From positions 156-64,155 of the IMG/VR virus record IMGVR_UViG_2756170246_000002: a stretch of DNA of 64,000 nt, one strand, 5' to 3'. Numbering within the stretch: the first letter of the stretch is position 1; each line of letters opens with the position of its first letter. A model generated the notes under the pieces. The model saw only the letters and a program-made list of their open reading frames with translations. It had not been told where the DNA came from and ran no database searches. The translations under genes and the position numbers were made by a program. Below, one piece after another: positions 2,844 to 47,103 of this stretch. This DNA comes from a virus.

Positions 2844-4115
2844 CTAAGACCAGACCGTCGACAGATCCTGGAGCGCCGAGTCCGACATCGGCGCCCAGAC
2901 GTGGATGAAGCGGATATAGCCGCCGTTGACCGTGACATCGCCGGGCAGCCCGCCGAAAGCCGCTGCTTCGGCCGTGGCGACCAAACTAGTTCCGACAGTC
3001 GCCACAGGATCGCCGTTGACTGACATCGAAAGCCGCCCGCTGACCCTGGTTACCGCGATCTGGTGCAAGTTGGCGGAATAATGGGAGCGCGGATCGGTGA
3101 CTGTGCGGCTTGCCAGCAAGGCGTTGAAGTCCGACGCCTGCATTGCGAGGTTATCGGCCGAGGCGAGCCGCTCGAGCGTGACGCCATTGTCAAGCGCATT
3201 GGTCGCAACGGCCAACGGAATAGTGACATGATCGTTGTTGTCTTCCTCGTAGCCGACGAGGATGGTCCAGTTCATCGACGTCAGAGTTGCTAGGAACGTC
3301 CCGATTATGCCGATCGGCACGTCGCCATAGGGAATCTCGAGACCGAAGGCGGAGAGCGCACCGGGTGTATCGACGATATCGGCTAGCGTTTTCGATACGC
3401 CTGCGACGGAATAGACCCCGTTGAGGAAGTCTGCCGAGGCGAGGGTACTGCCGGGCAGGCTATAGGTTGGGCGGGCCGAAAGCGTAGGCAGATCGGCGTC
3501 GGCCTGGAGGTCAAGGCGTTCGATCGAGCGGATGTAGATGCTATGTGCCAGATAACCGGCGCCTGGCGCAGCGCCCAGCGAAAGCGCAGTTGCTGTCAAT
3601 GCAAAGACATCGGCTGTTGTGGTCTCAACTGCGTTGCCATCGGCCGACATCGAGAGGCGGCCGGCCGAGCGCGACAGCGCGACCTTGTGAACACCAGTAG
3701 GGAAACCCGCTGTATCGTTGACTTGGCGGAAGTAGATGCCGACGGTGTCCGTGGCGTTCATATAGCCGCTGGTCAGACGGGCCAGATAATAGGTGCCGTC
3801 ACCGGTGTCCGTGTAGAGGAATGGATAGCTGGTGCCGCTATCGGCGCGCTGGTAGTATTCGACGACGACGGTCTGATCGTCGCCCAAGAAGGCGGCGAGC
3901 GCGTCGCCGATCACCTCCACCGAAGGTGAAGCCTCAGAGTCCAATATCTCAAGCCCTGCGCTTGTGACCCAGCCCGGCTGGTCGATGACGTCGGCAGCCG
4001 TGACGGTGACGCCTGCGACTGTATAGCTTGCGCCCTTGAAGTCGAGCAGGGTCGTGTCGAGCGGAGGCGTTGGTGTTCCAGCGCCCTGCGATGCCCAGAT
4101 GCCGAACGAGGTCAT
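2844..4115 (-). CDS. Tail fibre/receptor-binding protein with two repeated LamG/ConA-like domains
   Basis: Internal repeat (HKVALSRSAGRLSMSADG vs HQIAVTRVSGRLSMSVNG); last gene of the tail module. Confidence 0.6.
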   Translation of the reverse strand: MTSFGIWASQGAGTPTPPLDTTLLDFKGASYTVAGVTVTAADVIDQPGWVTSAGLEILDSEASPSVEVIGDALAAFLGDDQTVVVEYYQRADSGTSYPFLYTDTGDGTYYLARLTSGYMNATDTVGIYFRQVNDTAGFPTGVHKVALSRSAGRLSMSADGNAVETTTADVFALTATALSLGAAPGAGYLAHSIYIRSIERLDLQADADLPTLSARPTYSLPGSTLASADFLNGVYSVAGVSKTLADIVDTPGALSAFGLEIPYGDVPIGIIGTFLATLTSMNWTILVGYEEDNNDHVTIPLAVATNALDNGVTLERLASADNLAMQASDFNALLASRTVTDPRSHYSANLHQIAVTRVSGRLSMSVNGDPVATVGTSLVATAEAAAFGGLPGDVTVNGGYIRFIHVWAPMSDSALQDLSTVWS

Positions 4116-13674: not shown

Positions 13675-13706
13675 AGCGCGGCCGCCACGGTGGACGGCCG
13701 CGCGCT
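13675..13706 (-). terminator. GC-rich hairpin after tail tube gene (terminator/stabiliser)
   Basis: GCGCGGCCG/CGGCCGCGC stem followed by TCGTTTT on the minus strand. Confidence 0.55.
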
Positions 13707-13710
13707 AGGC

Positions 13711-14211
13711 TTAGGTCGCGGCGACCTTAACCACATTCGAGTTAATTTCGATCGTGGCGTTCAGGTTTCGGACGGTGTTGGCGGCGCCGCCGGCCGAACT
13801 GGCATTCATCACCAGGCCGACGAAGTAGGCGACAGACGGTTCGCTGCCGCTCGCCCCGGAAGCGTCATTGAAGAGGACCTTGAAGGCATAGTTCGACTTG
13901 TTGTCGCCTTGCGCGGCGGCGATCAGCGCGATCTGGCCTTCGTCCTCCGAGATTTCCGCGAAGACGTTCTGCATCGAGCCGGCGTTTGTCGTGCCCTTCT
14001 GCTTGATGTCGCGGCCGCGGTTGATCAGCTGGGTCGAGATCAGCGCTGCGGTGTCGCCAAACGCGCCCATCTGGCTCCAGCCGTCGACCTCGACGAACTG
14101 GTCGGGGCTGGTGACGAAGTCGCTTTCGATGAAATCATCGATCTGGGTAGGTGTGATGCCGCCGATGTAGAACTTGCAACCAGCGACGGGATAAAGGTCT
14201 GTACCGGCCAT
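13711..14211 (-). CDS. Major tail tube protein
   Basis: 166 aa, G.KFYIG N-terminus, position, AAGGAG RBS. Confidence 0.8.
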   Translation of the reverse strand: MAGTDLYPVAGCKFYIGGITPTQIDDFIESDFVTSPDQFVEVDGWSQMGAFGDTAALISTQLINRGRDIKQKGTTNAGSMQNVFAEISEDEGQIALIAAAQGDNKSNYAFKVLFNDASGASGSEPSVAYFVGLVMNASSAGGAANTVRNLNATIEINSNVVKVAAT

Positions 14212-14231
14212 GAGGGATCTCCTTTGGAATT

Positions 14232-14300
14232 GGCTGGTTTCATGAGGGTGAAATCAGCAGGGTCACCGACACCGGCTGCGGGTTTTTCGGGCACCGCCCG
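14232..14300 (-). promoter_or_regulatory. Structured leader motif, copy 1 (upstream of tail tube gene)
   Basis: Shares CGGGCGGTGCCCG, GCAGCCGGTGTCGGTGAC, GCTGATTTCAC and GAAACCAGCC blocks with 22996-23063. Confidence 0.75.
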
Positions 14301-14312
14301 TGGGATAGGGTT

Positions 14313-14765
14313 TTATTCAGCCGCCGGCTTGGCGTAGAGGCTGATGGTGAGCGTCACGCGCCGGCCGACACGGCTTTCGTCGTCGACCGGCGCCGGGTAT
14401 GGCCCCTGGGCAGTGATCTGGGTGACGCTATAGTTGGTGACGGTGATCGCTTGGCGCTGACGATGGAACAGCGAGTGGATCAGTTCGGCGCACGTCTCGA
14501 CGTCGCGATACTGCTTGTCCTGCTCGCCGTAGATACAGATGTCGATGACGACGCGCGGGCGGAAATCGTTGATGCCGTCGGCTTCCATGCGGGTCACGAC
14601 AGGTCCGATGGTGATGGCTGGATACCTGGCCTCCGCCGGCACCGGGCGGCGCGTGTGCGCAGATGGCTCGGAATTGTAGAGGCCGAGCAGACCGACGATG
14701 TCCGAAGCGTTGACAATGGCCGTGCGCAGCGGCTTGAGAATTTCCAGCGGAGGTGCGCCGCTCAT
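14313..14765 (-). CDS. Tail terminator, DUF3168-like
   Basis: YPAITIG motif, 150 aa, upstream of tail tube. Confidence 0.75.
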   Translation of the reverse strand: MSGAPPLEILKPLRTAIVNASDIVGLLGLYNSEPSAHTRRPVPAEARYPAITIGPVVTRMEADGINDFRPRVVIDICIYGEQDKQYRDVETCAELIHSLFHRQRQAITVTNYSVTQITAQGPYPAPVDDESRVGRRVTLTISLYAKPAAE

Positions 14766-15166
14766 TTCAGCGCCGCCCTGATCTCCCCCTGGATATCGCT
14801 TTCGATCTGATCCTTGCTGTTGGCAAGCGCTGGCCTCGCAAACGAGCGCGGGGCCATGTTCTCATTGCCGAACTCAAGCGATGCCGCTTGGGCCGTCGAC
14901 CAGTGCACGGTGCCCGTCAGCTTTTCCGTGTCGAACTCGGTGCGGCCGGACTGGATCGTGGCGCCGGTATCGCTGGCGAACGGCTCGCCTGGTGCCGAGG
15001 CTTTGTGATCGACGCCGCGACGATGGTAGACCCGGCCGGTCTTGGGCGTGTCGAGGATCAGCGAATTCGCCTCCTCATGCACGCCGAGCGTGGCCTTGAT
15101 GACTCCCCGCAGCGTTCCGGCGCGAATCTTCGCGAGAACTTCTGGCCCGCGCCAATCCACCGACAT
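14762..15166 (-). CDS. HK97 gp10-like neck/tail completion protein
   Basis: HKASAPGEPFASDTG, LEFGNENMAPRSFARPAL motifs. Confidence 0.8.
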   Translation of the reverse strand: MSVDWRGPEVLAKIRAGTLRGVIKATLGVHEEANSLILDTPKTGRVYHRRGVDHKASAPGEPFASDTGATIQSGRTEFDTEKLTGTVHWSTAQAASLEFGNENMAPRSFARPALANSKDQIESDIQGEIRAALK

Positions 15167-15181
15167 TTTATCGCTCCCTGC

Positions 15182-15210
15182 TTGTAACCAGATTGGTTAC
15201 GCACCATGTT
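15182..15210 (+). promoter_or_regulatory. Operator-containing promoter TTGTAA-N17-CATGTT; operator GTAACCAGATTGGTTAC at 15184-15200
   Basis: Perfect 7-3-7 palindrome overlapping the -35 and spacer. Confidence 0.8.
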
Positions 15211-15238
15211 TCTTGCGGTTACAACAAAGGAGATTCGC

Positions 15239-15391
15239 GTGAACACCCTCAGCCGCAAGCGGCAGATCGAAGTGCTTGAAGCCGCATGGAACAGCCTCGA
15301 ACTGACGCCGATCCCGTTGGAGAAGGCGTTCGCCGCCATCGCCGAGCAGAGCCGCCGCGCTCAGACCGGCGCGCTGATCTCGAAGCACTGA
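15239..15391 (+). CDS. 50-aa hypothetical protein, antisense inside late operon
   Basis: AAGGAG RBS, GTG start, directly downstream of the operator-promoter. Confidence 0.6.
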   Translation: MNTLSRKRQIEVLEAAWNSLELTPIPLEKAFAAIAEQSRRAQTGALISKH

Positions 15392-15744
15392 AGGCGCATG
15401 GTGGCTGAAGCCGGATCCTGATCGAGGATTTCCCTGACCTTGTGCCACTGCGCCTTGATATAAATCTGGTCGCCTTGCTGCGGCACGGTGCGCGGCTCGA
15501 CGGACTGGAGCAGGACGAGCACGCCGACATCGGTTTGCGGGATTCCTGCACGGACTCTGAACGCTGCATCGAACGTTTCGCGGATGCCATTGAAGGTGAA
15601 GGTCGGCGTCGTGCCGGCGTTCGGGTCGCCAAAATCGTCATTGCCGGTTCCAGGCACCTCGCGGCGCAGCACGCCGTCGGTGAGTTTTCCCCGGAATGCA
15701 CGGGCCACGGTGCGGGCCAATGGACCTTCGAGCAGCGATGCCAT
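15361..15744 (-). CDS. Head-closure/head-tail joining protein
   Basis: MASLLEGPLA...; DPASATMRLQC C-terminus; position. Confidence 0.65.
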   Translation of the reverse strand: MASLLEGPLARTVARAFRGKLTDGVLRREVPGTGNDDFGDPNAGTTPTFTFNGIRETFDAAFRVRAGIPQTDVGVLVLLQSVEPRTVPQQGDQIYIKAQWHKVREILDQDPASATMRLQCFEISAPV

Positions 15745-15926
15745 AGTCTCCCTTTCCGTGACAGAGCCCCCTGATCTTTCCGACGACGAAGCCGCCGACA
15801 TGCTGCACCGCATGGCGTTCGAGCTCGAAGGCAGGCGCGGCATGACGCGGCGCGCCGATACCGCGCTGAAAGCAGCCCGGGCCGCTCTGTTGATGTTCCT
15901 GGCTGGATTGATCCATGCCGGCGAGG

Positions 15927-16973
15927 CTAAGCCGCCGCCTTCTGACGACCAGCCAGCCGATTCACCACGACACAACGGCAACCGATGACGTCTTTCGCCG
16001 GTGCGCCCAGCGAGGTATCGCCGGGAAACATCAGCAGCGCGCCATCAGGCGACTTGAACGGCTGAGTGAAGCCGACCACCTGTCCATCCATGGCCCTATG
16101 CGCGTCGCGGGTGCGCTCGTCGCGGGTGCAGCGCCAGACCTTGGTGACGGTGCTGGCGTCGATCCCCGCCTTGGCGATGACCTGGGCGAAGGCTTCGCGC
16201 TGGGCGGCGCCAGTGGCCTGCGTCGCTTCCGTGCGGCCGATGGTTTCGCCGCGGAGCGCGAGAAGGCGGTTTTCATATTGGGTGACGGCGCGCTCGACGA
16301 CTTCTGCCTCGATCGGTGCCTTGTCGGAGATCGCCTTGATGACTGCCTTGTCGAAGCGCTGGTCCCGGGCCTGGCGCGCGAGGTAGGCGCGGAGTGCTGC
16401 CGGATCGCTCGATGCCAACTGATCGCGGGCACCGGCGACGGCCTGATATTGCCCCGATGTCAGCCCGACAATGCCACCCTCGCGCTGTCCTGTCGCCCTG
16501 TTGAGCCGTCCGACCACGTCGAGCGCCACGGTGCGCGCGGCGCGCCCGGCCTCAAGCCCATCGGAAAGCGCCTTGCGCAAGGCCAGCTTCTGATCGTCGA
16601 GGATTGCCGTGACGAGTTCAACGCCCCTGTTCTCGACCCAGCGCGCCGCACTTGGAAAGCCCGGGTCGAAGCGGAACAGGATCGGAATGCCCTGCGCATC
16701 CCGCAATGTCGGAATATCCCGTGCCACGACGACACCGGTTTCCTCGAAGGCGGTGCGGATGGCGCGCTGCAGGCCACGGAAGGCCGCCGGGTCGAGTTCG
16801 ACCAGTTGCAGCGCCCTTTCGACGTCACCCTTCTGAAGCGCATCAGCGATGGCTGCAATGCGCGCCGTGTCGCGGATTTCCTGGATGGAGGCGAGAAAGG
16901 CCTGCCGGATTTCCTCGCTGAAGCGCTCGAGCAGCGCGTCGAGGCGCTGGCGCGGCGTCTGGGTCTTGGCCAT
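15927..16973 (-). CDS. Head morphogenesis/minor head protein (SPP1 gp7 / Mu gpF-like)
   Basis: ETIGRTEA, KVWRCTRDERTRDAH, MFPGD and GCRC motifs. Confidence 0.85.
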   Translation of the reverse strand: MAKTQTPRQRLDALLERFSEEIRQAFLASIQEIRDTARIAAIADALQKGDVERALQLVELDPAAFRGLQRAIRTAFEETGVVVARDIPTLRDAQGIPILFRFDPGFPSAARWVENRGVELVTAILDDQKLALRKALSDGLEAGRAARTVALDVVGRLNRATGQREGGIVGLTSGQYQAVAGARDQLASSDPAALRAYLARQARDQRFDKAVIKAISDKAPIEAEVVERAVTQYENRLLALRGETIGRTEATQATGAAQREAFAQVIAKAGIDASTVTKVWRCTRDERTRDAHRAMDGQVVGFTQPFKSPDGALLMFPGDTSLGAPAKDVIGCRCVVVNRLAGRQKAAA

Positions 16974-17194
16974 CAGTTCGATGCCTGAGTCTCGAATTGG
17001 GTGAGATCCACAGCGAGCCAGGAACCGTCTGGCAACTGCCCGACTGCCGAGCGCGCCTCGTCTGCGTCGTCAGTCTCTTCGCCATCGGCGTCGAGCAGGG
17101 TTTCGAGGTGAACGGTTGCCCCGTCATCCATGACCGCGATGCGCTGGGCAACGTTGACTGCCGCGACATCGACCGTCAGCGGAAGTTCAGCCAT
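16973..17194 (-). CDS. Hypothetical protein (acidic)
   Basis: Coupled to neighbours by stop/start overlaps. Confidence 0.55.
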   Translation of the reverse strand: MAELPLTVDVAAVNVAQRIAVMDDGATVHLETLLDADGEETDDADEARSAVGQLPDGSWLAVDLTQFETQASN

Positions 17195-17439
17195 TACGCC
17201 TGACCCAGAAGCTTTTCAGCGTAGGCGGATAGGTCACCCTCACGCGTCGCGCCGAACACGAAGCGCATGGCGATCTCGTTCATGCCGATGTCGCATTCCT
17301 TGCAAAGAGCGCGGAACTGTTTGCGGCCTCCGATTTTGTCGGCGCAAATGTTCCATGACGCGTGCGACGGCCTAGCCCCGCAGCGCGCGCATGGCACGCG
17401 CCGGATGCCGATCGCCGAATAGGGCTGCGTCCGCATCAC
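17194..17439 (-). CDS. Hypothetical Cys-motif protein
   Basis: CARC and CKEC; coupled overlaps. Confidence 0.55.
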   Translation of the reverse strand: MMRTQPYSAIGIRRVPCARCGARPSHASWNICADKIGGRKQFRALCKECDIGMNEIAMRFVFGATREGDLSAYAEKLLGQA

Positions 17440-17945
17440 GCCCTCAGGAAGAAACTCGAGGAGGTGGTCGACCGCTTGCCGATAATCCCCGACAGCGCCT
17501 TGTCGATGATGGAAAAGATCGTCTCGGCAGGAGCTCCATCGGTATAGGTGATATCGACCGATCCAGCCTTCAGTTCCTTGATCTTGCCGCCGCGCTCCAG
17601 ATCGGGCGAGAGCGAGCCAGGATCGGCCAGTTCACGCACCGCTGCCTCGCAGGTGGCGTTCTTGATCTCGACGGGAACCTCATCGTCATCGATATCCTCG
17701 CCGAACTGGTCGACCGCTTCTTTGCGAGGCCATTCAAGCGCCTGGGTGCGGCCAAGTAGGCGTTTTCCGGGAAAGCGCAGACGATACTCGCCGTCGATAA
17801 AATCAGTGGCGCGGATCAGCGCGCCTTCTTCATCTCCAGAAGGCAGCGCTGTTGCGCGCGAGTCGAGATAGGCTTCAAAATCGGCGACGCTGACATAGGA
17901 GTTCGCGCCGGCGAGCCCGGTGCCGTCTTCGACAACGAGTGCCAT
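17436..17945 (-). CDS. Head-tail adaptor ('DnaT-like' phage family)
   Basis: MALVVEDGTGLAGANSYVS, QALEWPR, VPVEIKNATCEAA motifs. Confidence 0.8.
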   Translation of the reverse strand: MALVVEDGTGLAGANSYVSVADFEAYLDSRATALPSGDEEGALIRATDFIDGEYRLRFPGKRLLGRTQALEWPRKEAVDQFGEDIDDDEVPVEIKNATCEAAVRELADPGSLSPDLERGGKIKELKAGSVDITYTDGAPAETIFSIIDKALSGIIGKRSTTSSSFFLRA

Positions 17946-17946
17946 A

Positions 17947-18237
17947 TCAGCGCATCCTTGCCGCCGCGCGCATCGCGGCCGCTGTGTGTTCCCTGATCGC
18001 ACCGAGAGGAACGTCCACGTGCGTGACGAAGCCGCCACTTGCGGGTGGCGCGCGGCACAGCAAATCCGCACCGACAGCAATGCCGCATTCCAGCTCGTAG
18101 GAGATGATCGTCGGCGGTTTGCCTATCGAAGTCGCCCATACGTAGCCGGAAATGCGCGTGCGCACGCTCTCCGGCGTGTACACGACGAGATCGCCGATCT
18201 GGAACTGCGCTGCAATTGCCGTTTCGAGATCGGTCAT
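17947..18237 (-). CDS. Hypothetical protein
   Basis: In-operon ORF, 96 aa. Confidence 0.5.
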   Translation of the reverse strand: MTDLETAIAAQFQIGDLVVYTPESVRTRISGYVWATSIGKPPTIISYELECGIAVGADLLCRAPPASGGFVTHVDVPLGAIREHTAAAMRAAARMR

Positions 18238-18239
18238 AC

Positions 18240-18527
18240 TCAGCGCTCCTTGATCTTCAGCTTTTGCGAGAAATCATCTTCCTCGCCGTCCGACATGACG
18301 ATGTGGTTGGTGATGAGATAGGTGGTTCCCTCAACCCCGCCCGAGATGCGCACGGTCGTGTTGGTGTCGGTGAAGGACGATGCGACCTTGACCAGGTCGC
18401 CACCGCCGGCCCAGGTTTCGCTATTCAGCAGCCATGTCGATGCCGCGATGGTTGATTCCCCGATGTCGGCCGTCCAGTCGATGCCGAAATCGCGGATCGC
18501 ATCCTTGTCTTTCGGTCCCCACGTCAT
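18240..18527 (-). CDS. Fibre-adaptor-like virion protein
   Basis: KDKDAIRDFGIDW, VRISGGVEGTTYLITNHI motifs. Confidence 0.6.
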   Translation of the reverse strand: MTWGPKDKDAIRDFGIDWTADIGESTIAASTWLLNSETWAGGGDLVKVASSFTDTNTTVRISGGVEGTTYLITNHIVMSDGEEDDFSQKLKIKER

Positions 18528-18748
18528 GATTGGCTTATCCTTGAGACTGGGTCGACTGTGGCGGAACGCGTCACATGGTCGGCGCTGGCGTTCCGTATTC
18601 CGGCATTGACCAGCACGCCGCGGTTGACCGCATCAGCGATGGCGAAAAATCCGGCCTCGGTCGGGAACACCAGGTCGACCGGGACGAAGCCGCCACCGAA
18701 AAAGCGCTTGCCGAAGAAGTGCCGACCGAACCATGACCCGGAAAACAT
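18524..18748 (-). CDS. Small virion-associated protein (F/G-rich N-terminus)
   Basis: MFSGSWFGRHFFGKRFFGG; coupled overlaps. Confidence 0.55.
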   Translation of the reverse strand: MFSGSWFGRHFFGKRFFGGGFVPVDLVFPTEAGFFAIADAVNRGVLVNAGIRNASADHVTRSATVDPVSRISQS

Positions 18749-20535
18749 CAGGTCGCGTCCGTCGCGACGGCTGAGCGATTCCCATCTGAATCGACGGTTG
18801 CCGTCAGGCGGTTCTTACTGTCGGCCGCGTCGCGGAAATGCACAGTCGTTCCGGCCAAGCCGTTGGCCTTGCCGTAGAGCGCGGCGCGGGCTAGGCGGAA
18901 ATGATCCTGCACCGTCTCGGCGCCTTCGTAGGTGGCCGCCAGGAGCGCGTCTGCATTGTCAGAAGGGCTTGGGATCGAAATCGCAGAGATGTCGGCTGCC
19001 GTTGCAAGCGCTGCATCCGTGATCGACTGATCGACGTCGGCTGACGATAGATCGTTGAGCGCGGCGACAGCGGTGCCGATTCCGTCGATGCTGCCTTGAG
19101 CATGGGCGATGTCGTCGGCCAGATCGCCGAAATTCGGCGTGCCGATGCGGCCTTCAATGGTTCCGGCTGCCGCGCCTGTATCGGTCAGCACCTTGCCCGC
19201 CGTTCCGTCCGTGGCATGGCCGGCAAGCGCTTCATCCCAGACCGCGACAGCAACTTCGCTTGCCGTCGGCGCGTCAGGCAGGGCCGCAATATCCGCGATG
19301 ATCGTGTCGGCCTTGCCGTCAGCCGATTGAGCCGCAGCCGTCCCGTCAAACAGGATCTCGGCCGCTTTTCCGCCGCCGAGATAGTCGGCAATCGTGGCCG
19401 ACCAGACACCGGCCTTGATGTCGTCGACCTTGGGCAGCGCATCGCCGTTTTCGTTGAGCACCCAGAGCTTGCCGGCGGTCTGGGCAATGGCGTCCTGCCA
19501 CGCCTTGATGCTGTCGACTTTGCCATCCGTGGTCGCTAGCGACGCGGCGGTAGCGAAGCCGGTAGCGGTTGCCCAGGTGCTGTCGCCATGCGACTGCAGC
19601 GCAGTGAAGGCGCTCGCGATGTCGGATGCATCGGCTGGGTCGGACGGAAGGTTGTCCGTCTTGGCCTTGACTGCTCCGGTGTCGCTTTTCACCGCTGCGA
19701 CATCCGCTGAAACAGATGCGCCTGATGGCGCACCAAGTCGACCCATGATCGCATCCGTGGCAGCAATGATCAGGCTTTCATCAGCCGGATCGCTTGGCAA
19801 ATTGTCCGTCTTGGCCTTGATAGCGCCGACATCGCTGGCCGTTATCCCGGTCACGCTGCCGACCGAGCCGGTGACGTTGCCCCCAACGTTTCCGGCGACA
19901 GAACCCACGGCACCGGTGACGGAACCGACGGTCCCAGTCACGCTAGCGATGGTAACGTCACTGGCCACCTTGGCGTCAGTAATTGCATCCGCGGCGATTG
20001 CGGCGGCGGTCAGTACTGCAGCCGCCATGGCGCCGACGCTGGCGTCGATGCGGCCGGAAACGAGCGCGGCGGGAATGCGTGTCTGGATGTTGTCGGTATC
20101 GGCCTGCACGCCGGCAATGTCAGCGCTGATCGATGCACCAACCGGGGCACCGATGCGGGCAAACACGTCGCTCGCAAGATTGTCGACCAGTTGCACATCG
20201 ACGCTGGCCTGCACCATGCCTGCCGCGCCCTTGATCACGATAGCGACGCTCTCGGCACCGGTGGCAAAAGCCGCATCCGGCACATCAAGCCGATAGATGC
20301 CAGGCATGTTGGCGGAATCGACTTCCTTGAAACCGCCGGATGACCACGCCGTGTTGGCGGCAGCGAGCGTGGCCAGGGTGATGGCAACGGCAGTGTTCTG
20401 GTTGCGCACATAGTAGGCGGTGAGGCTTGACGTGTTGTAGGCAAGCCCGGTCTTGCGCCCGCCCGTTGTCGATGCCGAATCCAGCACGTCGACATAGATC
20501 GACTGGCTGGTGGCGCCTTTTTTTATGGTGCGCAT
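18748..20535 (-). CDS. Putative head fibre/appendage protein with internal repeats
   Basis: 595 aa, Ala/Asp/Gly-rich; KAKTDNLPSDPAD occurs twice 50 aa apart. Confidence 0.6.
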   Translation of the reverse strand: MRTIKKGATSQSIYVDVLDSASTTGGRKTGLAYNTSSLTAYYVRNQNTAVAITLATLAAANTAWSSGGFKEVDSANMPGIYRLDVPDAAFATGAESVAIVIKGAAGMVQASVDVQLVDNLASDVFARIGAPVGASISADIAGVQADTDNIQTRIPAALVSGRIDASVGAMAAAVLTAAAIAADAITDAKVASDVTIASVTGTVGSVTGAVGSVAGNVGGNVTGSVGSVTGITASDVGAIKAKTDNLPSDPADESLIIAATDAIMGRLGAPSGASVSADVAAVKSDTGAVKAKTDNLPSDPADASDIASAFTALQSHGDSTWATATGFATAASLATTDGKVDSIKAWQDAIAQTAGKLWVLNENGDALPKVDDIKAGVWSATIADYLGGGKAAEILFDGTAAAQSADGKADTIIADIAALPDAPTASEVAVAVWDEALAGHATDGTAGKVLTDTGAAAGTIEGRIGTPNFGDLADDIAHAQGSIDGIGTAVAALNDLSSADVDQSITDAALATAADISAISIPSPSDNADALLAATYEGAETVQDHFRLARAALYGKANGLAGTTVHFRDAADSKNRLTATVDSDGNRSAVATDAT

Positions 20536-20558
20536 CTTACCTCACCCAGAAAAGCATC

Positions 20559-21266
20559 TTAGTTCCGCTTTCCGTATGGCCACATAGAGCCCCAACCTTG
20601 GCTGGCATATGTGGGAGAACCAGGAGTTGACGGGGCAGGAATGCTGGCCTGGCTGAAATAAGCAACCAGTCGACTGGCGCTTATAAAAGATATGCCTGCA
20701 GTCTGTAGATTCAGTCCTATCCAAATAAGATCACCGGCATTTGCCGCGAGCCCTGATGTGAATGGAACAGTATTCACCCCTTGCACGGCGCCGGTTATGG
20801 ATGAGCCATTTGCAAGTCGAGTGCTTAGTGCACCGACACCCGTAGAACCGTAAGCTACCGGTTCGAATACAGCAGAAGCAGCTGCTGCTGTTGCCCGGAA
20901 TTTAACGCCGCTTATCAACATATTAGCTGGAATTAAAAAGGGCACCAATCCGACAAAACCATTACTGAACGTCGAACCAGCTACAGAATCTATTCCGGCC
21001 GGCGGCGAATCAACATTGTTGTCCGAGATTAAAACCCAATCTGTTGCGGCGCCCGTATCCTTGCCCATATAGATTTTGTGGTTCGTTGTATCCACATAAA
21101 CCTGTCCATTCTGTGCCGGGGCGCTACCCGGCGCGCCGGAGCCCTCGGCCAGATTGGGCGTCGATACCAGGAAATCGCGCAACATCTGCGGCGTGATGGC
21201 TCCGCCGGTGTTGTCCGCGAAGAGTACCTGCAGTGCAGCCAAAGTCCGTTGCGTATCAGCCATCAA
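20559..21266 (-). CDS. Putative head fibre/decoration protein with lower-GC C-terminal domain
   Basis: GSGAPGSAP...GQVYVDTT fibre-like motif; sampled 60-nt lines in the 3' two-thirds are 43-53% GC. Confidence 0.55.
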   Translation of the reverse strand: MMADTQRTLAALQVLFADNTGGAITPQMLRDFLVSTPNLAEGSGAPGSAPAQNGQVYVDTTNHKIYMGKDTGAATDWVLISDNNVDSPPAGIDSVAGSTFSNGFVGLVPFLIPANMLISGVKFRATAAAASAVFEPVAYGSTGVGALSTRLANGSSITGAVQGVNTVPFTSGLAANAGDLIWIGLNLQTAGISFISASRLVAYFSQASIPAPSTPGSPTYASQGWGSMWPYGKRN

Positions 21267-21370
21267 CTAAATCCATTCGAAAAGCCGCTGGAGAAAGCGC
21301 GCGTTGAGCTGAAGACGAAGATGTAGGGACCGCAAAAGGTCCACATGCGCATGCCTAGGATCGACATCAA

Positions 21371-21766
21371 TCAGCCGCGCATTGCCAGTTCGGCTTCGAT
21401 GGCCGCAACCGCATCAGCCGCGCTGTTGATGGGCTGATCACTCAATTTCGTGGCAAGGCCGCGCAGTGAGGTGCCGCCCTTTGACCGCGGCAGGTAGGGG
21501 AGGAATTTCCAGTCGTCTGGAATCTCGATCGGCCCGGCCGGCTGCTCGTCTTGGTCAGGCTGCTCGATGAACGCGCGCTCGTCTGTGGCCATTGAGAATT
21601 CTTGGTGCCGATCATTGGCGGCAGGTGCGACCTCCGCGCCATTGGCAAGCGCGTTCGCTTCCTCGCGTGAAAATCCATCAGAGCGCGCCTGGTAATAGCG
21701 GTTGCGCTGCTCCTGGATTTCCTGGCGCTGGCGAAGCACGGCCTCGCTGATGACGATGCGGCGCAT
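21371..21766 (-). CDS. Hypothetical head-module protein
   Basis: 131 aa in-operon ORF. Confidence 0.55.
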   Translation of the reverse strand: MRRIVISEAVLRQRQEIQEQRNRYYQARSDGFSREEANALANGAEVAPAANDRHQEFSMATDERAFIEQPDQDEQPAGPIEIPDDWKFLPYLPRSKGGTSLRGLATKLSDQPINSAADAVAAIEAELAMRG

Positions 21767-21767
21767 G

Positions 21768-21890
21768 TTACTTCCCGAGTTTCTTCTTCAGGAAAGCCGG
21801 CATGGCCTTTGCCTTGCCCTTGGCCTTCTTGGCGCCGGCTGGTTTCTTGCCGAAGAACTTTGCCTGTTTGGCGGTCATCTTCTTGGCCAT
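21768..21890 (-). CDS. 40-aa Lys-rich basic protein MAKKMTAKQAKFFGKKPAGAKKAKGKAKAMPAFLKKKLGK
   Basis: Read by hand; GGAGG RBS; stop 1 nt before the next ATG; below ORF-track cutoff. Confidence 0.7.
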   Translation of the reverse strand: MAKKMTAKQAKFFGKKPAGAKKAKGKAKAMPAFLKKKLGK

Positions 21891-21956
21891 GCGTGATCCT
21901 CCATTTGGGACGGAAAGCGAACAGAGCGGAACAAATGGCCAAAAGGCCGGGGAACA

Positions 21957-21982
21957 GATGGCGGCAGCTGCCCGCCGCCATC
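21957..21982 (-). terminator. Hairpin after major capsid gene
   Basis: GATGGCGGC/GCCGCCATC 9-bp stem 12 nt after the capsid stop. Confidence 0.5.
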
Positions 21983-21994
21983 GATGTCGGGTCG

Positions 21995-22975
21995 TTACGC
22001 GATTTTGTGGCGGAGCATCACGATGCGAACGTTCTTTTGCTCGTAGACGCGGCTCCAGTTGCCGGCGGCTGCGAGTTCAGCGTCGCTCGGCGTGACCGAT
22101 GCGGGAACGCCCGAACCCGGGTCCCACTTGATGCCGCGAGGATGCAGCACGTAGTGGCGGCGGGTCACCAGATAGTCCTGGCCACCATTGATCAGCGGGT
22201 TGCGGCCGACTTCGGACGGAACCTTGGGGTTGCCGTCGGCAAAGCCGATGGCGCCCGGGCCGAACAGGTAGGTGTCATAGACGCCGTTGGTGCCCGCGTT
22301 GGCATCGTCGACGATGAGTTCCTTCTGCATGAAGGTCTTCATGACGATCTGGCCGTCGGAGTCACGGATGGTGTCGATGAGGTTGTTCTTGGCAAGCAGG
22401 GCTTCCACAGCCGAGTGCATGAGCACGCCGCTGATCTGGTCCTTCTTGTCGCCGAGCATCTGGGCCGCGTCGATGAAGGACGTGCCGTCGATGATGGCGG
22501 CGGCACCCGACAGGCCCGAGATGTCGAGAGCGTTGACATCGGGGGACTCGGCGAGCAGCGCGCCCATGGCACCCTTGAGCGTGGCGATGAGCTGGTAGTT
22601 GAACTCACCGGACCAGTTCTCGGCGATGCCCGAGGCGATAGCGGCCATGGCATCGTCGCCGGCGAGAGCCGCCGAGAGATCGGTGCCACCGTAGACAAGG
22701 GCGCGTGCATGCTGCACGGCCTTGTCCTGGCCGGTCTGGACCTTGCGGATTTCCAGATCCTGGGTGTCGTCGAGAAGCTGCGCACGCTCGGACAGCGCCT
22801 TCCAGAACGGCATGTTGATTTCGGTGCCGCCCTGGTTGCCGAAGGTGAGGTCGGGAACCGAGGTGACGATGCCGGAGCGGAAGAACGCGTTGACCTGCGT
22901 GGTCAGTTCGCGGAAGTACGGGTTGAAGCGTTCCGGGACGATGACGTCCGCGAGAGCAGTGGGGGTGTCAGCCAT
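21995..22975 (-). CDS. Major capsid protein
   Basis: 326 aa after scaffold; LADVIVPERF, GGTEINMPFW, LVTRRHYVLHPRG motifs; GAGGAG RBS. Confidence 0.88.
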   Translation of the reverse strand: MADTPTALADVIVPERFNPYFRELTTQVNAFFRSGIVTSVPDLTFGNQGGTEINMPFWKALSERAQLLDDTQDLEIRKVQTGQDKAVQHARALVYGGTDLSAALAGDDAMAAIASGIAENWSGEFNYQLIATLKGAMGALLAESPDVNALDISGLSGAAAIIDGTSFIDAAQMLGDKKDQISGVLMHSAVEALLAKNNLIDTIRDSDGQIVMKTFMQKELIVDDANAGTNGVYDTYLFGPGAIGFADGNPKVPSEVGRNPLINGGQDYLVTRRHYVLHPRGIKWDPGSGVPASVTPSDAELAAAGNWSRVYEQKNVRIVMLRHKIA

Positions 22976-22995
22976 GGGAAAATCTCCTCTGGTTA

Positions 22996-23063
22996 GGCTG
23001 GTTTCGCTGTGAAATCAGCCGCGTCACCGACACCGGCTGCTGATGATTGCGGGCACCGCCCGC
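22996..23063 (-). promoter_or_regulatory. Structured leader motif, copy 2 (upstream of major capsid gene)
   Basis: Three hairpins matching 14232-14300. Confidence 0.75.
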
Positions 23064-23100
23064 GGCGTTGAACTGGCAGGCTTGATGCCGGCCAGGATGG

Positions 23101-23955
23101 TTATTTGAGCGGACCGGTCGACCGGTTGGCGTGGTTGAGATCCTTGAAGCCGGCGGACTTCGCCAGACGCTCCGCCTTGGCGCGATCAGAACCGAGCAGC
23201 GCGCCTTGCTGGCTGATGTTCCATGTCTCCTTGGCGTAGGGGTTGGTTTCGCCATTGCGCAGGTTGCGATTGCCCCCGCGCTCGTCGGCGCCCGAAGGCG
23301 GCGCGATAAAATCCTTAGCCTCGTCGCTCTGCGACCAGTTGCCGATGAACTTGTCGAGCTCGTCACCGCCGAGGTCCGTCTTCATGCGGGCAACGCGCTT
23401 GCCGTCTTCCTCGACAATCTCGACATCGCCTTCGAACATGCGCTGCGCGGCCTTGAGCAGGGTCGGTTTGACGCCGGCTTTGACCAGCGCCTTGGTGAGC
23501 CCATCGCCAACGAGCGTGGTGCGCAGATCGCCTGTGATGCTGGCGATCGCGGTGTCCTTCTCGGCGATGATCTCGTCCTTGGCCCTGATCGCCGCGTCGT
23601 GGCGCGTCTGCATCTGCCGTTCCTTGGCGGCGACAGCGGTCTCGACCTGCTTGCGCACGTCCTTGCCTTCGGGATCGGCCTGGCGGGCTTCGTCCTCGGT
23701 CTTGAGGCGTTCCCATTCGGCGGCATCGAAATCTTCGGGCAGGCCCTTGAGCTTCTTCTCTGCCGCGGTGAGTTTTGCGCGCGCTTCGTCGCGCTCGCGC
23801 TTGGAATTGGTGTGGCCGTTTTTGAGAGCGATGACGGCGGGATGGTCGTCGATCCCGTCGATCTGCAAGATGTGCTTGCCGTCCTTCTCCTCATAGAGGG
23901 CATGGAGGGCTTCCTCGATACCATCGAGGCTGGAAACGACTGACTTCAAAGCCAC
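23101..23955 (-). CDS. Capsid scaffolding protein
   Basis: Coiled coil, LYEEKDGKHILQIDG N-terminus, NPYAKETWN C-terminus; AAGGAG RBS before GTG. Confidence 0.82.
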   Translation of the reverse strand: MALKSVVSSLDGIEEALHALYEEKDGKHILQIDGIDDHPAVIALKNGHTNSKRERDEARAKLTAAEKKLKGLPEDFDAAEWERLKTEDEARQADPEGKDVRKQVETAVAAKERQMQTRHDAAIRAKDEIIAEKDTAIASITGDLRTTLVGDGLTKALVKAGVKPTLLKAAQRMFEGDVEIVEEDGKRVARMKTDLGGDELDKFIGNWSQSDEAKDFIAPPSGADERGGNRNLRNGETNPYAKETWNISQQGALLGSDRAKAERLAKSAGFKDLNHANRSTGPLK

Positions 23956-24000
23956 CGGCTTTTCTCCTTTGGGGTTGAGAAGCCCGCACCGCGAGCACGA

Positions 24001-24025
24001 AAAAACCCGCCGGGATGGCGGGCTG
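24001..24025 (-). terminator. Intrinsic terminator-like hairpin upstream of scaffold
   Basis: CCCGCC ATCCC GGCGGG followed by TTTTT. Confidence 0.65.
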
Positions 24026-24080
24026 GAAAGCATCAGAAATGAGTAGAAATCACCTCGGATTTGAGGTCGTGACCGGACGG

Positions 24081-25333: not shown

Positions 25334-25711
25334 TCAGGCGAGCGCGGCGTCGACCACGCGATAGGGGCAGCGCAGAAGAGCTGCGATCTCGGTGCGCTTG
25401 CGTCCCATGCCGAACAGCCGGCGGATTTCTGCGGCGCTGTTGACGTTCATCGGTTCGAGCGATGGCTCCGGCTTGGGCGGCGCAGCCTTCACCTTGGCGG
25501 CAGCCTCGGCGCGGGCGTGGCGCTTCTCAGCAGCCGCTTCCGGGTCACGCGGCTCGTGCTGGACGCGGCGCGTGACGTTGAGCCTCGCGGCAAGCTGGCT
25601 TGGATAACTGGCAGACATGCCGAACGCCTTGGCGATCTCGGCTGTCGGCACGCCGGCGACATACAGGCGCATTATCTCGCGGCGCTTGTCTTCGCTCAGC
25701 GGCTTGATCAT
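25334..25711 (-). CDS. HTH DNA-binding protein (two HTH-like segments)
   Basis: IMRLYVAGVPTAEIAKAFGMS and IRRLFGMGRKRTEIAALL. Confidence 0.7.
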   Translation of the reverse strand: MIKPLSEDKRREIMRLYVAGVPTAEIAKAFGMSASYPSQLAARLNVTRRVQHEPRDPEAAAEKRHARAEAAAKVKAAPPKPEPSLEPMNVNSAAEIRRLFGMGRKRTEIAALLRCPYRVVDAALA

Positions 25712-25739
25712 GGAATTTCCTGGTCTATCCGGCGCCACC

Positions 25740-26081: not shown

Positions 26082-26158
<77 letters not shown>

Positions 26159-35910: not shown

Positions 35911-36006
35911 GGCGACCGGCGATCCCGCACGTGCTTCGGCCACCGGCCGGAAATCACGCTGCATTGGTTTGAAGCTCCGCTTCGATGAATTTTCGACTGT
36001 ACCCAC

Positions 36007-36035
36007 TTGTAACCAAAATGGTTACGTCCTATCCT
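36007..36035 (+). promoter_or_regulatory. Operator-promoter TTGTAA-N17-TATCCT; operator GTAACCAAAATGGTTAC at 36009-36025
   Basis: Perfect palindrome, 17-bp spacer. Confidence 0.85.
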
Positions 36036-36059
36036 CTACCAGAGGAAGGGGGAACGCTC

Positions 36060-45970: not shown

Positions 45971-46258
45971 CGTGCAAAGATGAAACCGGCCGTCAGGGCT
46001 CATCTTCACCTTGGGATCGGTCATCGGGATCAGTTCATGCGTGTTGCGGATTTCGTAGCCGCGAGCGCCTTCGATGATGTCGGCGTCGGGAACTTCGCGG
46101 CAGTCGATTCCGCTGCAGCAATTTTGTGGATAGCTCCAACCCGTCGGCGCGTCGTGGCTATGCGCCTTCCCGCCGAACAGCGTGTTGAGGAAAAGTACCG
46201 ATGCGGCTATAGCCAGCACCCACTGCAGGAAGAGGAAGCGCTTGCGCTCGGCGGTCAT
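45911..46258 (-). CDS. Exported Cys-containing hypothetical protein
   Basis: N-terminal hydrophobic helix, AHSHDAPTGWSYP..CCSGIDC, PDGRFHLC. Confidence 0.75.
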   Translation of the reverse strand: MTAERKRFLFLQWVLAIAASVLFLNTLFGGKAHSHDAPTGWSYPQNCCSGIDCREVPDADIIEGARGYEIRNTHELIPMTDPKVKMSPDGRFHLCTVGGLDDSRTICLFAPSRGF

Positions 46259-47103
46259 GGGGCACGGTCCACGATGCCGACGAACGTCATCTTGTGTTCA
46301 CGACAATAACGGCGGAACGCGGCACCGTGCAGTTCGCCGGGAAGCATGTCGATGGAGTGGCCGGTCGTGCCTCCCTTCCATGATCCCTTGCGCTCGCCGG
46401 TCTCGCCGGAAAACTGGAGGTCGAGCGAGCGGCGGATTTTCGGCTTGCGGAACAGGGAGAGCCACTTGAACCAGCCGGTTCCGAACTTCCACTCCCATTC
46501 CTCAATCATGGTGGTGACAGTCAGGCGCTCGTCGTCGAAGTCATCGAAGGCAAACGAGACCGTCGGCGTTGCCTTTTCGATGGCGCGCTCGCGCTCCCAT
46601 CGGCCGGAATCGAGCGTGTAGCTTTTTCCGGTATCGGGCATGGTCGCGACATGCTCGCCGTTGATGCCGTAGAAGCTCTTGCGGACATGCCGCCATTGCG
46701 TCCACGGGAGGAACTTCCCCCAGCGCTGTTCGGTGCTGCTGTCGTTGGTCTGGCGGCCGAGCATGACGCTCAGATGGCCTTCGGAGTAGGTGAATCCGTA
46801 TTCCCGTTCGTGCGTGTCCCAATACCAGTCGCGGCCGAGCCGTTCGATGGTTTCGGCATCCCAAAATTTGGCAGTGACCTTCCGGCGCCAGGGCTTCAGC
46901 ACTTGAGGCAGAGCCAAGATGAGCGTGTGGCCGAATCCGCTCAGGCGAAGGTCGCAGCCGGGGTATTCGTCATCACCGGAGCCGAGCACGATGGCCAACG
47001 GCCGGTAATGGCCGCGCTTTTCATGCGCGTAGGTGAACGGGCCGAAGTAGTGGTCGTGATCGCTCCAGCGGCGGTGATAGTGTCTGCTGAACATGCCCAT
47101 CAC
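46255..47103 (-). CDS. Phage hypothetical protein (Trp-rich)
   Basis: 282 aa, ATGA overlaps. Confidence 0.65.
   Translation of the reverse strand: MMGMFSRHYHRRWSDHDHYFGPFTYAHEKRGHYRPLAIVLGSGDDEYPGCDLRLSGFGHTLILALPQVLKPWRRKVTAKFWDAETIERLGRDWYWDTHEREYGFTYSEGHLSVMLGRQTNDSSTEQRWGKFLPWTQWRHVRKSFYGINGEHVATMPDTGKSYTLDSGRWERERAIEKATPTVSFAFDDFDDERLTVTTMIEEWEWKFGTGWFKWLSLFRKPKIRRSLDLQFSGETGERKGSWKGGTTGHSIDMLPGELHGAAFRRYCREHKMTFVGIVDRAP

Follow-up and report, generated by a model that had tools for sequence, protein, structure and literature searches.

Phage-specific triloop hairpins in a predicted structured leader RNA at the capsid, tail-tube and scaffold genes of alphaproteobacterial siphophages

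The major capsid gene and the major tail-tube gene of a siphophage prophage of a Mesorhizobium host are preceded by a common leader of about 88 nt, and comparison with related phages indicates that this leader is a real, conserved and uncatalogued folded RNA. The prophage was analysed over a stretch of 64,000 nucleotides (the window; positions 156 to 64,155 of IMG/VR virus record IMGVR_UViG_2756170246_000002). Judged from its homologues, the leader belongs to a family of structured RNAs that alphaproteobacterial siphophages carry in the 5' leaders of their SPP1-type capsid genes. Three aspects of it are new: the loops of its hairpins match within a phage and turn over between phages; hairpins with the same loop extend to the start codon and to codon 12 of the head scaffolding gene, where they leave an imprint on the amino-acid sequence; and the second and third hairpins of the leader compete for the same bases. 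We suggest that the hairpins are operators for a phage-specific factor, and weigh this against a purely cis-acting function, antitermination and a role at the DNA level.

Both leaders are found where the first-pass annotation, made from the sequence of the window by itself, had placed them, on the minus strand at 22977-23064 (capsid) and 14212-14302 (tail tube). They match the covariance models of the new family (R1 and R2) over the full model length, the capsid copy with 83.4 bits (E 1e-18) and the tail-tube copy with 66.1 bits. In the capsid leader the first hairpin (HP1, GCGGGC-GGU-GCCCGC) lies at 23049-23063, the long form of the second (HP2) at 23016-23039, with its GGU loop at 23026-23028, and the third (HP3) at 22996-23020, followed by GGAG (22984-22987) and the ATG of the capsid gene (22973-22975). 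The corresponding positions before the tail-tube gene are 14288-14300 for HP1, 14255-14278 for HP2 (GGU loop 14265-14267) and 14233-14258 for HP3, then AAGGAG (14219-14224) and the ATG (14209-14211). The three hairpins proposed in the first-pass annotation are thus supported, although HP3 is larger than it was drawn, having the form GGCUG-A-UUUC ... GAAA-C-CAGCC, and the CCAGCC regarded as a separate motif behind it is in fact its 3' arm. Nor are HP2 and HP3 independent: the GCUG in the 3' arm of HP2 consists of the same bases as the 5' arm of HP3, and because this strand is common to both, their outer stems are mutually exclusive.

The genes behind the two leaders, on the same strand, are those first predicted. 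The capsid gene (21995..22975) encodes an SPP1 gp13-like major capsid protein (Pfam PF20036; 42% identity to SPP1 gene 13), for which cultured phages hold no close homologue, the best having 46% identity, and the tail-tube gene (13711..14211) falls in PHROG 158 (E 1.5e-16). A comparison of the whole window with Rfam 15 at the gathering threshold, a check already proposed for these leaders, returned one tRNA only, and in E-value mode no match overlapped the element at either leader locus up to E 10. A large survey of structured RNAs in viruses predicts structured RNAs upstream of some capsid genes (PMC10690425); our literature search found no paper describing the leader element, the individual predictions of that survey not being included in the comparison.

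The 17-mer CAGCCGGTGTCGGTGAC, present in both leaders, occurs exactly twice in the window against 0.24 occurrences expected, and a BLAST search with the leader against the whole 7.45 Mb genome returned these two copies only, with the next match at E ~0.1. The leader is not a host repeat, since the whole genome has just these two copies, and a host repeat family is further ruled out by the finding that, of 150 further genomes in the family of the host, just one has a copy. Scans guided by the capsid protein returned about 170 loci. The closer relatives among them, with 50-89% capsid identity, comprise alphaproteobacterial proviruses and metagenome contigs, and their capsid genes are preceded by the same leader of three hairpins. 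With covariance model R1 we collected 24 distinct full-length copies of 47-93 bits from related alphaproteobacterial phages and prophages, each of them immediately before a capsid homologue, save for the tail-tube copies of the window phage and of G001, a 72-kb relative with terminal repeats which, like the window phage, has one copy before the capsid gene and one before the tail-tube gene. Three other proviruses searched over their whole length have the capsid copy only, and the tail-tube leaders of other phages (L027-L034) contain other hairpins and not this element. A scan of IMG/VR with the HP3 pattern gave 23 matches, about half of which are true copies, all in capsid leaders apart from the tail-tube copy of G001; the rest are chance matches in coding sequence. 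From this distribution the element is phage-borne and at home in the capsid leader, and the tail-tube leader is therefore, on the sequences at hand, a lineage-confined duplication, seen only in the window prophage and one close relative. The two leaders that were initially described as a pair thus both exist, as an ancestral element and its duplicate. Two side observations concern the variety of such leaders. The capsid leader of L137 (1392-1494) has an extra, third GAU-triloop hairpin upstream of HP1, so that hairpin number varies. The tail-tube leaders of L027-L029 have a different hairpin in common, GCCCCUUCGGCAAGGGC, about 60 nt upstream of the ATG, and judging by these, leaders of abundant genes may often have hairpins of their own.

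The evidence for structure is comparative and not thermodynamic, because the folding energy of single sequences is unremarkable (z -0.3 to -1.5, not significant). Applied to a plain MAFFT alignment, RNAalifold found no more than 3 pairs owing to misalignment of HP1, and covariance models were therefore built and the copies realigned. In the resulting 24-copy alignment 93% of the pair cells hold standard pairs against 84% in shuffles, and the covariation score is 0.255 against 0.091 in shuffles (0 of 500 reached it) and 0.02-0.06 in slid controls; an alignment fitted to the model leans toward the model in its pair counts, and the slid controls and the raw sequences give the same picture. Compensatory changes in homologues, found in all three hairpins, agree with the conserved cis-acting RNA structure that the first-pass annotation had postulated. 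HP1 has two-sided changes at 5 of its 6 pairs, and one pair of the HP2 inner stem is CG in 10 copies, UA in 9 and GC in 5. HP3, which is AU-rich, is conserved in sequence and mostly invariant, with one compensated pair (GC in 18 copies, CG in 2) and a conserved mismatched or bulged A, and in most copies its end lies 5-7 nt from the core of the Shine-Dalgarno (SD) sequence. The linkers between HP1 and HP2 are 75% A+C and 7% U. Both window copies combine the features of the new family, that is, two GC-rich hairpins, HP1 and HP2, with C-G-closed RRN loops (R, purine; N, any base), the conserved HP3, and the SD sequence 5-7 nt downstream.

The strand shared by HP2 and HP3, GGCUG, can pair either with the CAGCC upstream of it, forming a long HP2, or with the CAGCC downstream, forming a long HP3, and both options are present in all subfamilies. 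A column-based pair count was infeasible for the HP2 outer stem, because its bulges differ between subfamilies, and energies were calculated for each sequence instead. The mean difference between the long HP2 and the long HP3 is -0.8 kcal/mol, and the two are within 2 kcal/mol of each other in 13 of the 24 copies; for the capsid copy of the window the two states have -13.3 and -13.8 kcal/mol. Such nearly isoenergetic predicted states are compatible with a two-state switch, without proving one.

The loops of HP1 and HP2 show a pattern of their own. Among the 24 copies, 47 of 48 are RRY triloops (Y, pyrimidine) closed by a C-G pair, and the loops found are GGU, AGU, GAU, GAC, AAU and AAC. More distant capsid homologues also have leaders with paired, C-G-closed triloop hairpins, with GAG, AAG, GAA, AAC and AGC as loops; phages with these loops weaken the idea that loop and closing G together mimic a start codon (GUG or AUG) as a decoy. 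The GGU-looped hairpins noticed at the outset are thus conserved as structures, GGU itself being no fixed motif and instead the window phage's version of a phage-specific RRN triplet. HP1 and HP2 have the same loop in 25 of 30 non-redundant phages, compared with 5.2 expected (none of 100000 shuffles among phages), and the HP2 loop equals that of the hairpin at the scaffold start codon in 16 of 18 phages, again compared with 5.2 expected. Copy correction from one hairpin to another does not account for this, because the stems differ within one phage. On a capsid tree (quick IQ-TREE, 32 rows; two rows with start coordinates out of frame were excluded) at least 17 loop changes are needed for HP2 and at least 19 for HP1, and well-supported clades mix loops that are matched internally, for example AAC/AAC, AGC/AGC and AGU/AGU in one case, or GGU, GAC, AGU and GAA. 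Twelve sense-strand hairpins of the 64-kb window have a GGU triloop on a stem of at least 5 bp, and half of them (6) fall within the scaffold, capsid and tube leaders, where HP2 of the tube leader, with its shorter stem, makes a seventh GGU-triloop hairpin. Elsewhere, an 8-bp C-G-closed hairpin, UCACCUUC-GGU-GGAGGUGA, lies at 3911-3929 on the minus strand inside a late-strand open reading frame (ORF) of 423 amino acids (2844-4115); it could be due to chance or be a further site.

Three further hairpins with the triplet, absent from the first-pass annotation, surround the start of the head scaffolding gene (23101..23955, minus strand; PHROG 206, E 3e-20, with an N-terminal alignment to relatives). 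The true start of this gene is the GTG at 23955 and not the ATG at 24033 that gives the longest ORF, on which the ribosome-binding site (RBS) and the homologues agree; the extension from 24033 also contains an intrinsic terminator (24004..24024, minus strand; 8 pairs and T6), conserved in relatives and directly upstream of the scaffold leader hairpin. This first hairpin, GCUCGC-GGU-GCGGGC (23982..23996), lies between the terminator and the RBS and has equivalents in relatives. The second, AAAGCC-GGU-GGCUUU (23948..23962), holds the GUG start codon (23953-23955), which is made up of the GU of the loop and the closing G, and the start codon, AUG or GUG, is inside a triloop hairpin in every related locus with a fixed scaffold start matching the conserved N-terminus. 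The third, CCUCGAU-GGU-AUCGAGG (23913..23929), is in frame over codons 10-14, with its loop as codon 12 (Gly); all three are on the minus strand. The start-codon hairpin (helix 1) is 86% paired and has 4 pairs with double changes, the codon-12 hairpin (helix 2) also has 4, and both covary (score 0.44 against 0.19; 0 of 500 shuffles).

A codon-12 hairpin with the phage's own triplet is present in about 15 of 21 scaffold genes, and when the columns of the scaffold alignment were scanned for agreement with the loop class, residue 12 was among the top three. The residue is Gly in phages with GGU, Ser with AGU, Asp with GAU or GAC, Asn with AAU and Glu with GAG. Residue 12 tracks the loop class because the in-frame triloop hairpin spans codons 10-14, and the loop triplet thus dictates amino acid 12 of the scaffold, a codon imprint on the protein. 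A phage with the GAG loop has two more GAG hairpins before its scaffold RBS.

We propose that these triloop hairpins are operators through which a phage-specific trans-acting factor tunes the expression of the scaffold, capsid and tail-tube genes, a proposal to which, on sequence evidence, we give about an even chance. It is ranked first because the loop is identical at 3-7 sites with unrelated stems, yet has switched time and again among related phages. A factor from the host would not vary in this manner, and a purely physical requirement would be expected to give the same loop everywhere. The existence of the factor, its identity, most likely that of a phage-encoded RNA-binding protein, and the direction of its effect are what we infer from this pattern. 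One triplet would mark every operator hairpin of a phage, and in the window prophage the sites would be those before the scaffold RBS, at the scaffold start codon and at scaffold codon 12, together with two hairpins each in the capsid and tube leaders. On the scaffold start hairpin the factor would occlude initiation. On HP2 of the capsid and tube leaders it would shift the competition between the long HP2 and the long HP3, and so alter access to the AU-rich segment and the RBS-proximal region; protection of the mRNA would be an alternative mode of action at these two leaders. The outcome would be a post-transcriptional coordination of the three most abundant virion proteins. A fuller version, which we hold tentatively and with somewhat less than even confidence, would be a sequence-specific regulator that binds RNA hairpins, whose specificity for the RRN triloop has often been re-set, and which reads 3-7 operators to control the ratio between scaffold, capsid and, for this lineage, tube protein, acting in the capsid and tube leaders by way of a bistable HP2/HP3 switch.

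Several points weigh against this proposal. Seventeen or more switches of specificity among 32 phages is fast for a protein-RNA pair, and the capsid tree might not reflect the history of the leader, in which case recombination of the scaffold-capsid module may have led us to overestimate the number of switches. We curated the loop table by eye, working from tool output, and the third base of the loop is less strict at the pre-scaffold hairpins. C-RRY-G triloop hairpins are not enriched in the window, which has 36 per strand, mostly in coding sequence. Beyond the imprint at codon 12, the scan of scaffold columns gave nothing convincing, and no candidate factor was identified. Nor was a trans-pairing RNA found, the window containing only chance 10-12-mers complementary to the leaders. 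The structured region behind the phage-borne tRNA has no loops complementary to the leaders, and two adjacent C-RRY-G triloop hairpins at 18188-18217 are in coding sequence.

Operators of a comparable kind are known from other phages. The coat-protein operators of the single-stranded RNA phages MS2, Qbeta and PP7 likewise include a hairpin at a start codon and dispersed hairpins that share a loop motif on different stems, and they are recognised through loop bases and an unpaired A, as there is an unpaired A in HP3 here; those phages, however, have RNA genomes and the coat protein as binder, whereas the window phage is a siphophage with double-stranded DNA and a binder that is only predicted. 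The com-mom operator of phage Mu, a protein-bound hairpin beside a second structure, governs access to a translation start much as is proposed here, but it is a single site, read by a zinc-finger protein of established identity, without loop matching at several sites. The loops of HP1 and HP2 lack the GGA found in the loops of CsrA/RsmA sites, and the sole GGA loop is at 35971-35983. Closest in the gene concerned is P22, whose scaffolding protein has been implicated, through its N-terminus, in translational autoregulation (bioRxiv 10.1101/2022.12.13.520362), so that both systems involve a head scaffold gene, post-transcriptional control and the N-terminal region. The two scaffold proteins are unrelated in sequence, only in the window system do capsid and tube leaders share the hairpins, and no defined operator RNA for P22 was found in the literature.

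An expression cassette acting only in cis, without any dedicated factor, would explain part of these data. RNase E would cut the single-stranded stretches of the long late transcript ahead of the hairpins, and the 5' and 3' hairpins would protect the capsid and tube segments from decay; in addition, the RBS region, unstructured and C/A-rich within a GC-rich genome, would be insulated by the hairpins, giving more mRNA and more initiation for the abundant proteins. The established model for this is papBA, where RNase E cuts upstream of a 5' hairpin that, together with a 3' terminator, protects the message of a major structural subunit (PMC5927463). Both cistrons of the window are bracketed in the same way. 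A strong 3' hairpin behind each gene, reported in the first-pass annotation, is confirmed on the minus strand at 21957..21982, where a 9-bp GC stem lies 13 nt past the capsid stop and is followed by a second small hairpin, and at 13676..13703, where a terminator-like hairpin of 11 pairs (10 GC), 5-8 nt past the tail-tube stop, is followed by UCGUUUU. The scaffold leader hairpin comes after the U-rich tail of a terminator, the composition of the HP1-HP2 linkers and the fixed distance from HP3 to the SD sequence agree with this explanation, and duplication onto a second high-copy virion gene is what a portable expression booster might undergo. The hairpins of papBA and ompA share with the window the arrangement of a 5' hairpin and a 3' terminator around the most abundant structural subunit's cistron within an operon (PMC5927463). 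They nevertheless lack a conserved loop, matched copies at other places and an alternative pairing. A 5' stabiliser of this type stands within a few nt of a processed or primary 5' end and prolongs the half-life of the mRNA, and it is in their anatomy that the window leaders agree with it. A generic stabiliser would need neither a fixed RRN class nor matching across 3-7 hairpins that differ between close relatives, and the hairpin enclosing the start codon, the codon 12 imposed by the RNA and the strictly conserved sequence of HP3 with its unpaired A would all be unexplained. We consider this explanation rather unlikely.

More improbable still is processive antitermination, in which the nascent hairpins would make RNA polymerase read through the capsid and tube terminators, either directly or by loading a phage factor onto it, with HP3 as a box for a host factor. 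The nut site of lambda consists of boxA and, downstream of it, the boxB hairpin, with a GNRA-like loop of 5 nt, and is bound by the arginine-rich N protein. In lambdoid phages, as in the leaders, the loop is the same at each site of one phage and differs between related phages, next to a conserved box and with terminators nearby. Strong terminators are indeed found in the late strand of the window, ahead of the scaffold gene as well as behind the capsid and tube genes, and the 5' end of the first late gene has a block of GGU hairpins whose conservation extends across a mosaic junction. The leader loops are nevertheless C-G-closed RRN triloops and not GNRA-like pentaloops, with 47 of the 48 HP1 and HP2 loops having 3 nt. 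The sites abut the RBSs and start codons of late structural genes and not early promoters, and two of them, at the scaffold start codon and codon 12, are in translated sequence, where ribosomes would melt them. A processive system would need no reloading before the tube gene. No boxA-like string (resembling CGCUCUUA) was seen on reading both leaders, the ORFs searched revealed no gene resembling N or Q, and Pfam and PHROG searches of selected ORFs gave no N-like family, small ORFs not being exhaustively covered. The put RNA of HK022, which acts on RNA polymerase without a protein, consists of two stem-loops directly downstream of a promoter, and no promoter-like hexamers were found beside the leaders.

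The 5'-terminal block of the first late-strand gene (PHROG 513, 'transposase'-like) has 57 nt (35929-35985, minus strand; counterpart at L234 1500-1557) and is 97% identical in G001, while both flanks differ. It contains the hairpins GAAGC-GGA-GCUUC, with the SD sequence in its loop, and CGGCC-GGU-GGCCG, just past the ATG, and may be a further site of the same hairpin system or a control element of the late operon. Nearby, a small plus-strand ORF starting near 36059 diverges from the late strand, and the region between them contains a perfect palindrome, TCCTCT-GGT-AGAGGA (36032-36046), that resembles a DNA operator more than it does an RNA hairpin.

A late promoter or operator acting as DNA, with palindromes bound by a dimeric activator or with hairpins extruded as in phage N4, whose virion RNA polymerase reads stems of 5-7 bp with 3-nt loops, is very improbable. 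In its favour, every hairpin is also a DNA palindrome, the terminator directly before the scaffold leader resembles the start of a new transcription unit, and a protein of 134 amino acids with likeness to HTH_23 and to sigma-70 region 4 is encoded amid the late-strand genes, about 1.3 kb ahead of the scaffold gene (25334-25738, minus strand). Against it, the stems change by compensation and differ between sites of one phage while the loop alone is kept, the opposite of what is expected of a double-stranded DNA operator, and all copies are on the sense strand at a fixed distance from RBSs. Sigma-70-like hexamers were not found and sigma-54 spacing was not seen on reading the sequence, and both promoter readings were discarded on account of spacing and loop variation; an N4-like hairpin promoter was discarded as well, no phage RNA polymerase family having been found in the ORFs searched with Pfam and PHROG.

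Some other features of the late strand may be mentioned, all on the minus strand. A hairpin, CUGGCCGGC...GCCUGCCAG, lies directly past the scaffold stop and upstream of HP1 of the capsid leader (23073..23095). The phage-borne tRNA is a tRNA-Met with anticodon CAT, at 26082-26158, between an enzyme cassette and the head genes. The 134-residue protein encoded at 25334-25738 also has a weak and probably meaningless match to a PHROG labelled RNase E (E 9e-4), and the product of 46255-47103 strongly matches Pfam Acb3, a CBASS inhibitor (E 3e-82).

Outside a few model phages, little is understood of how tailed phages draw proteins in very unequal amounts from a single long late transcript. The leader offers a compact RNA module at the scaffold, capsid and tail-tube genes, which is portable, as its copying onto the tube gene in one lineage indicates. 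Its three-base, phage-specific tag, with a readable imprint in a protein sequence, provides a directly testable handle, and in annotation the module can flag capsid genes and correct the start of the scaffold gene. If the reader of the tag is a phage protein with an easily re-set specificity, it would set a precedent for translational control coupled to assembly in phages with double-stranded DNA, and these phages would hold a natural family of orthogonal pairs of RNA hairpins and proteins, which would be useful as tools.

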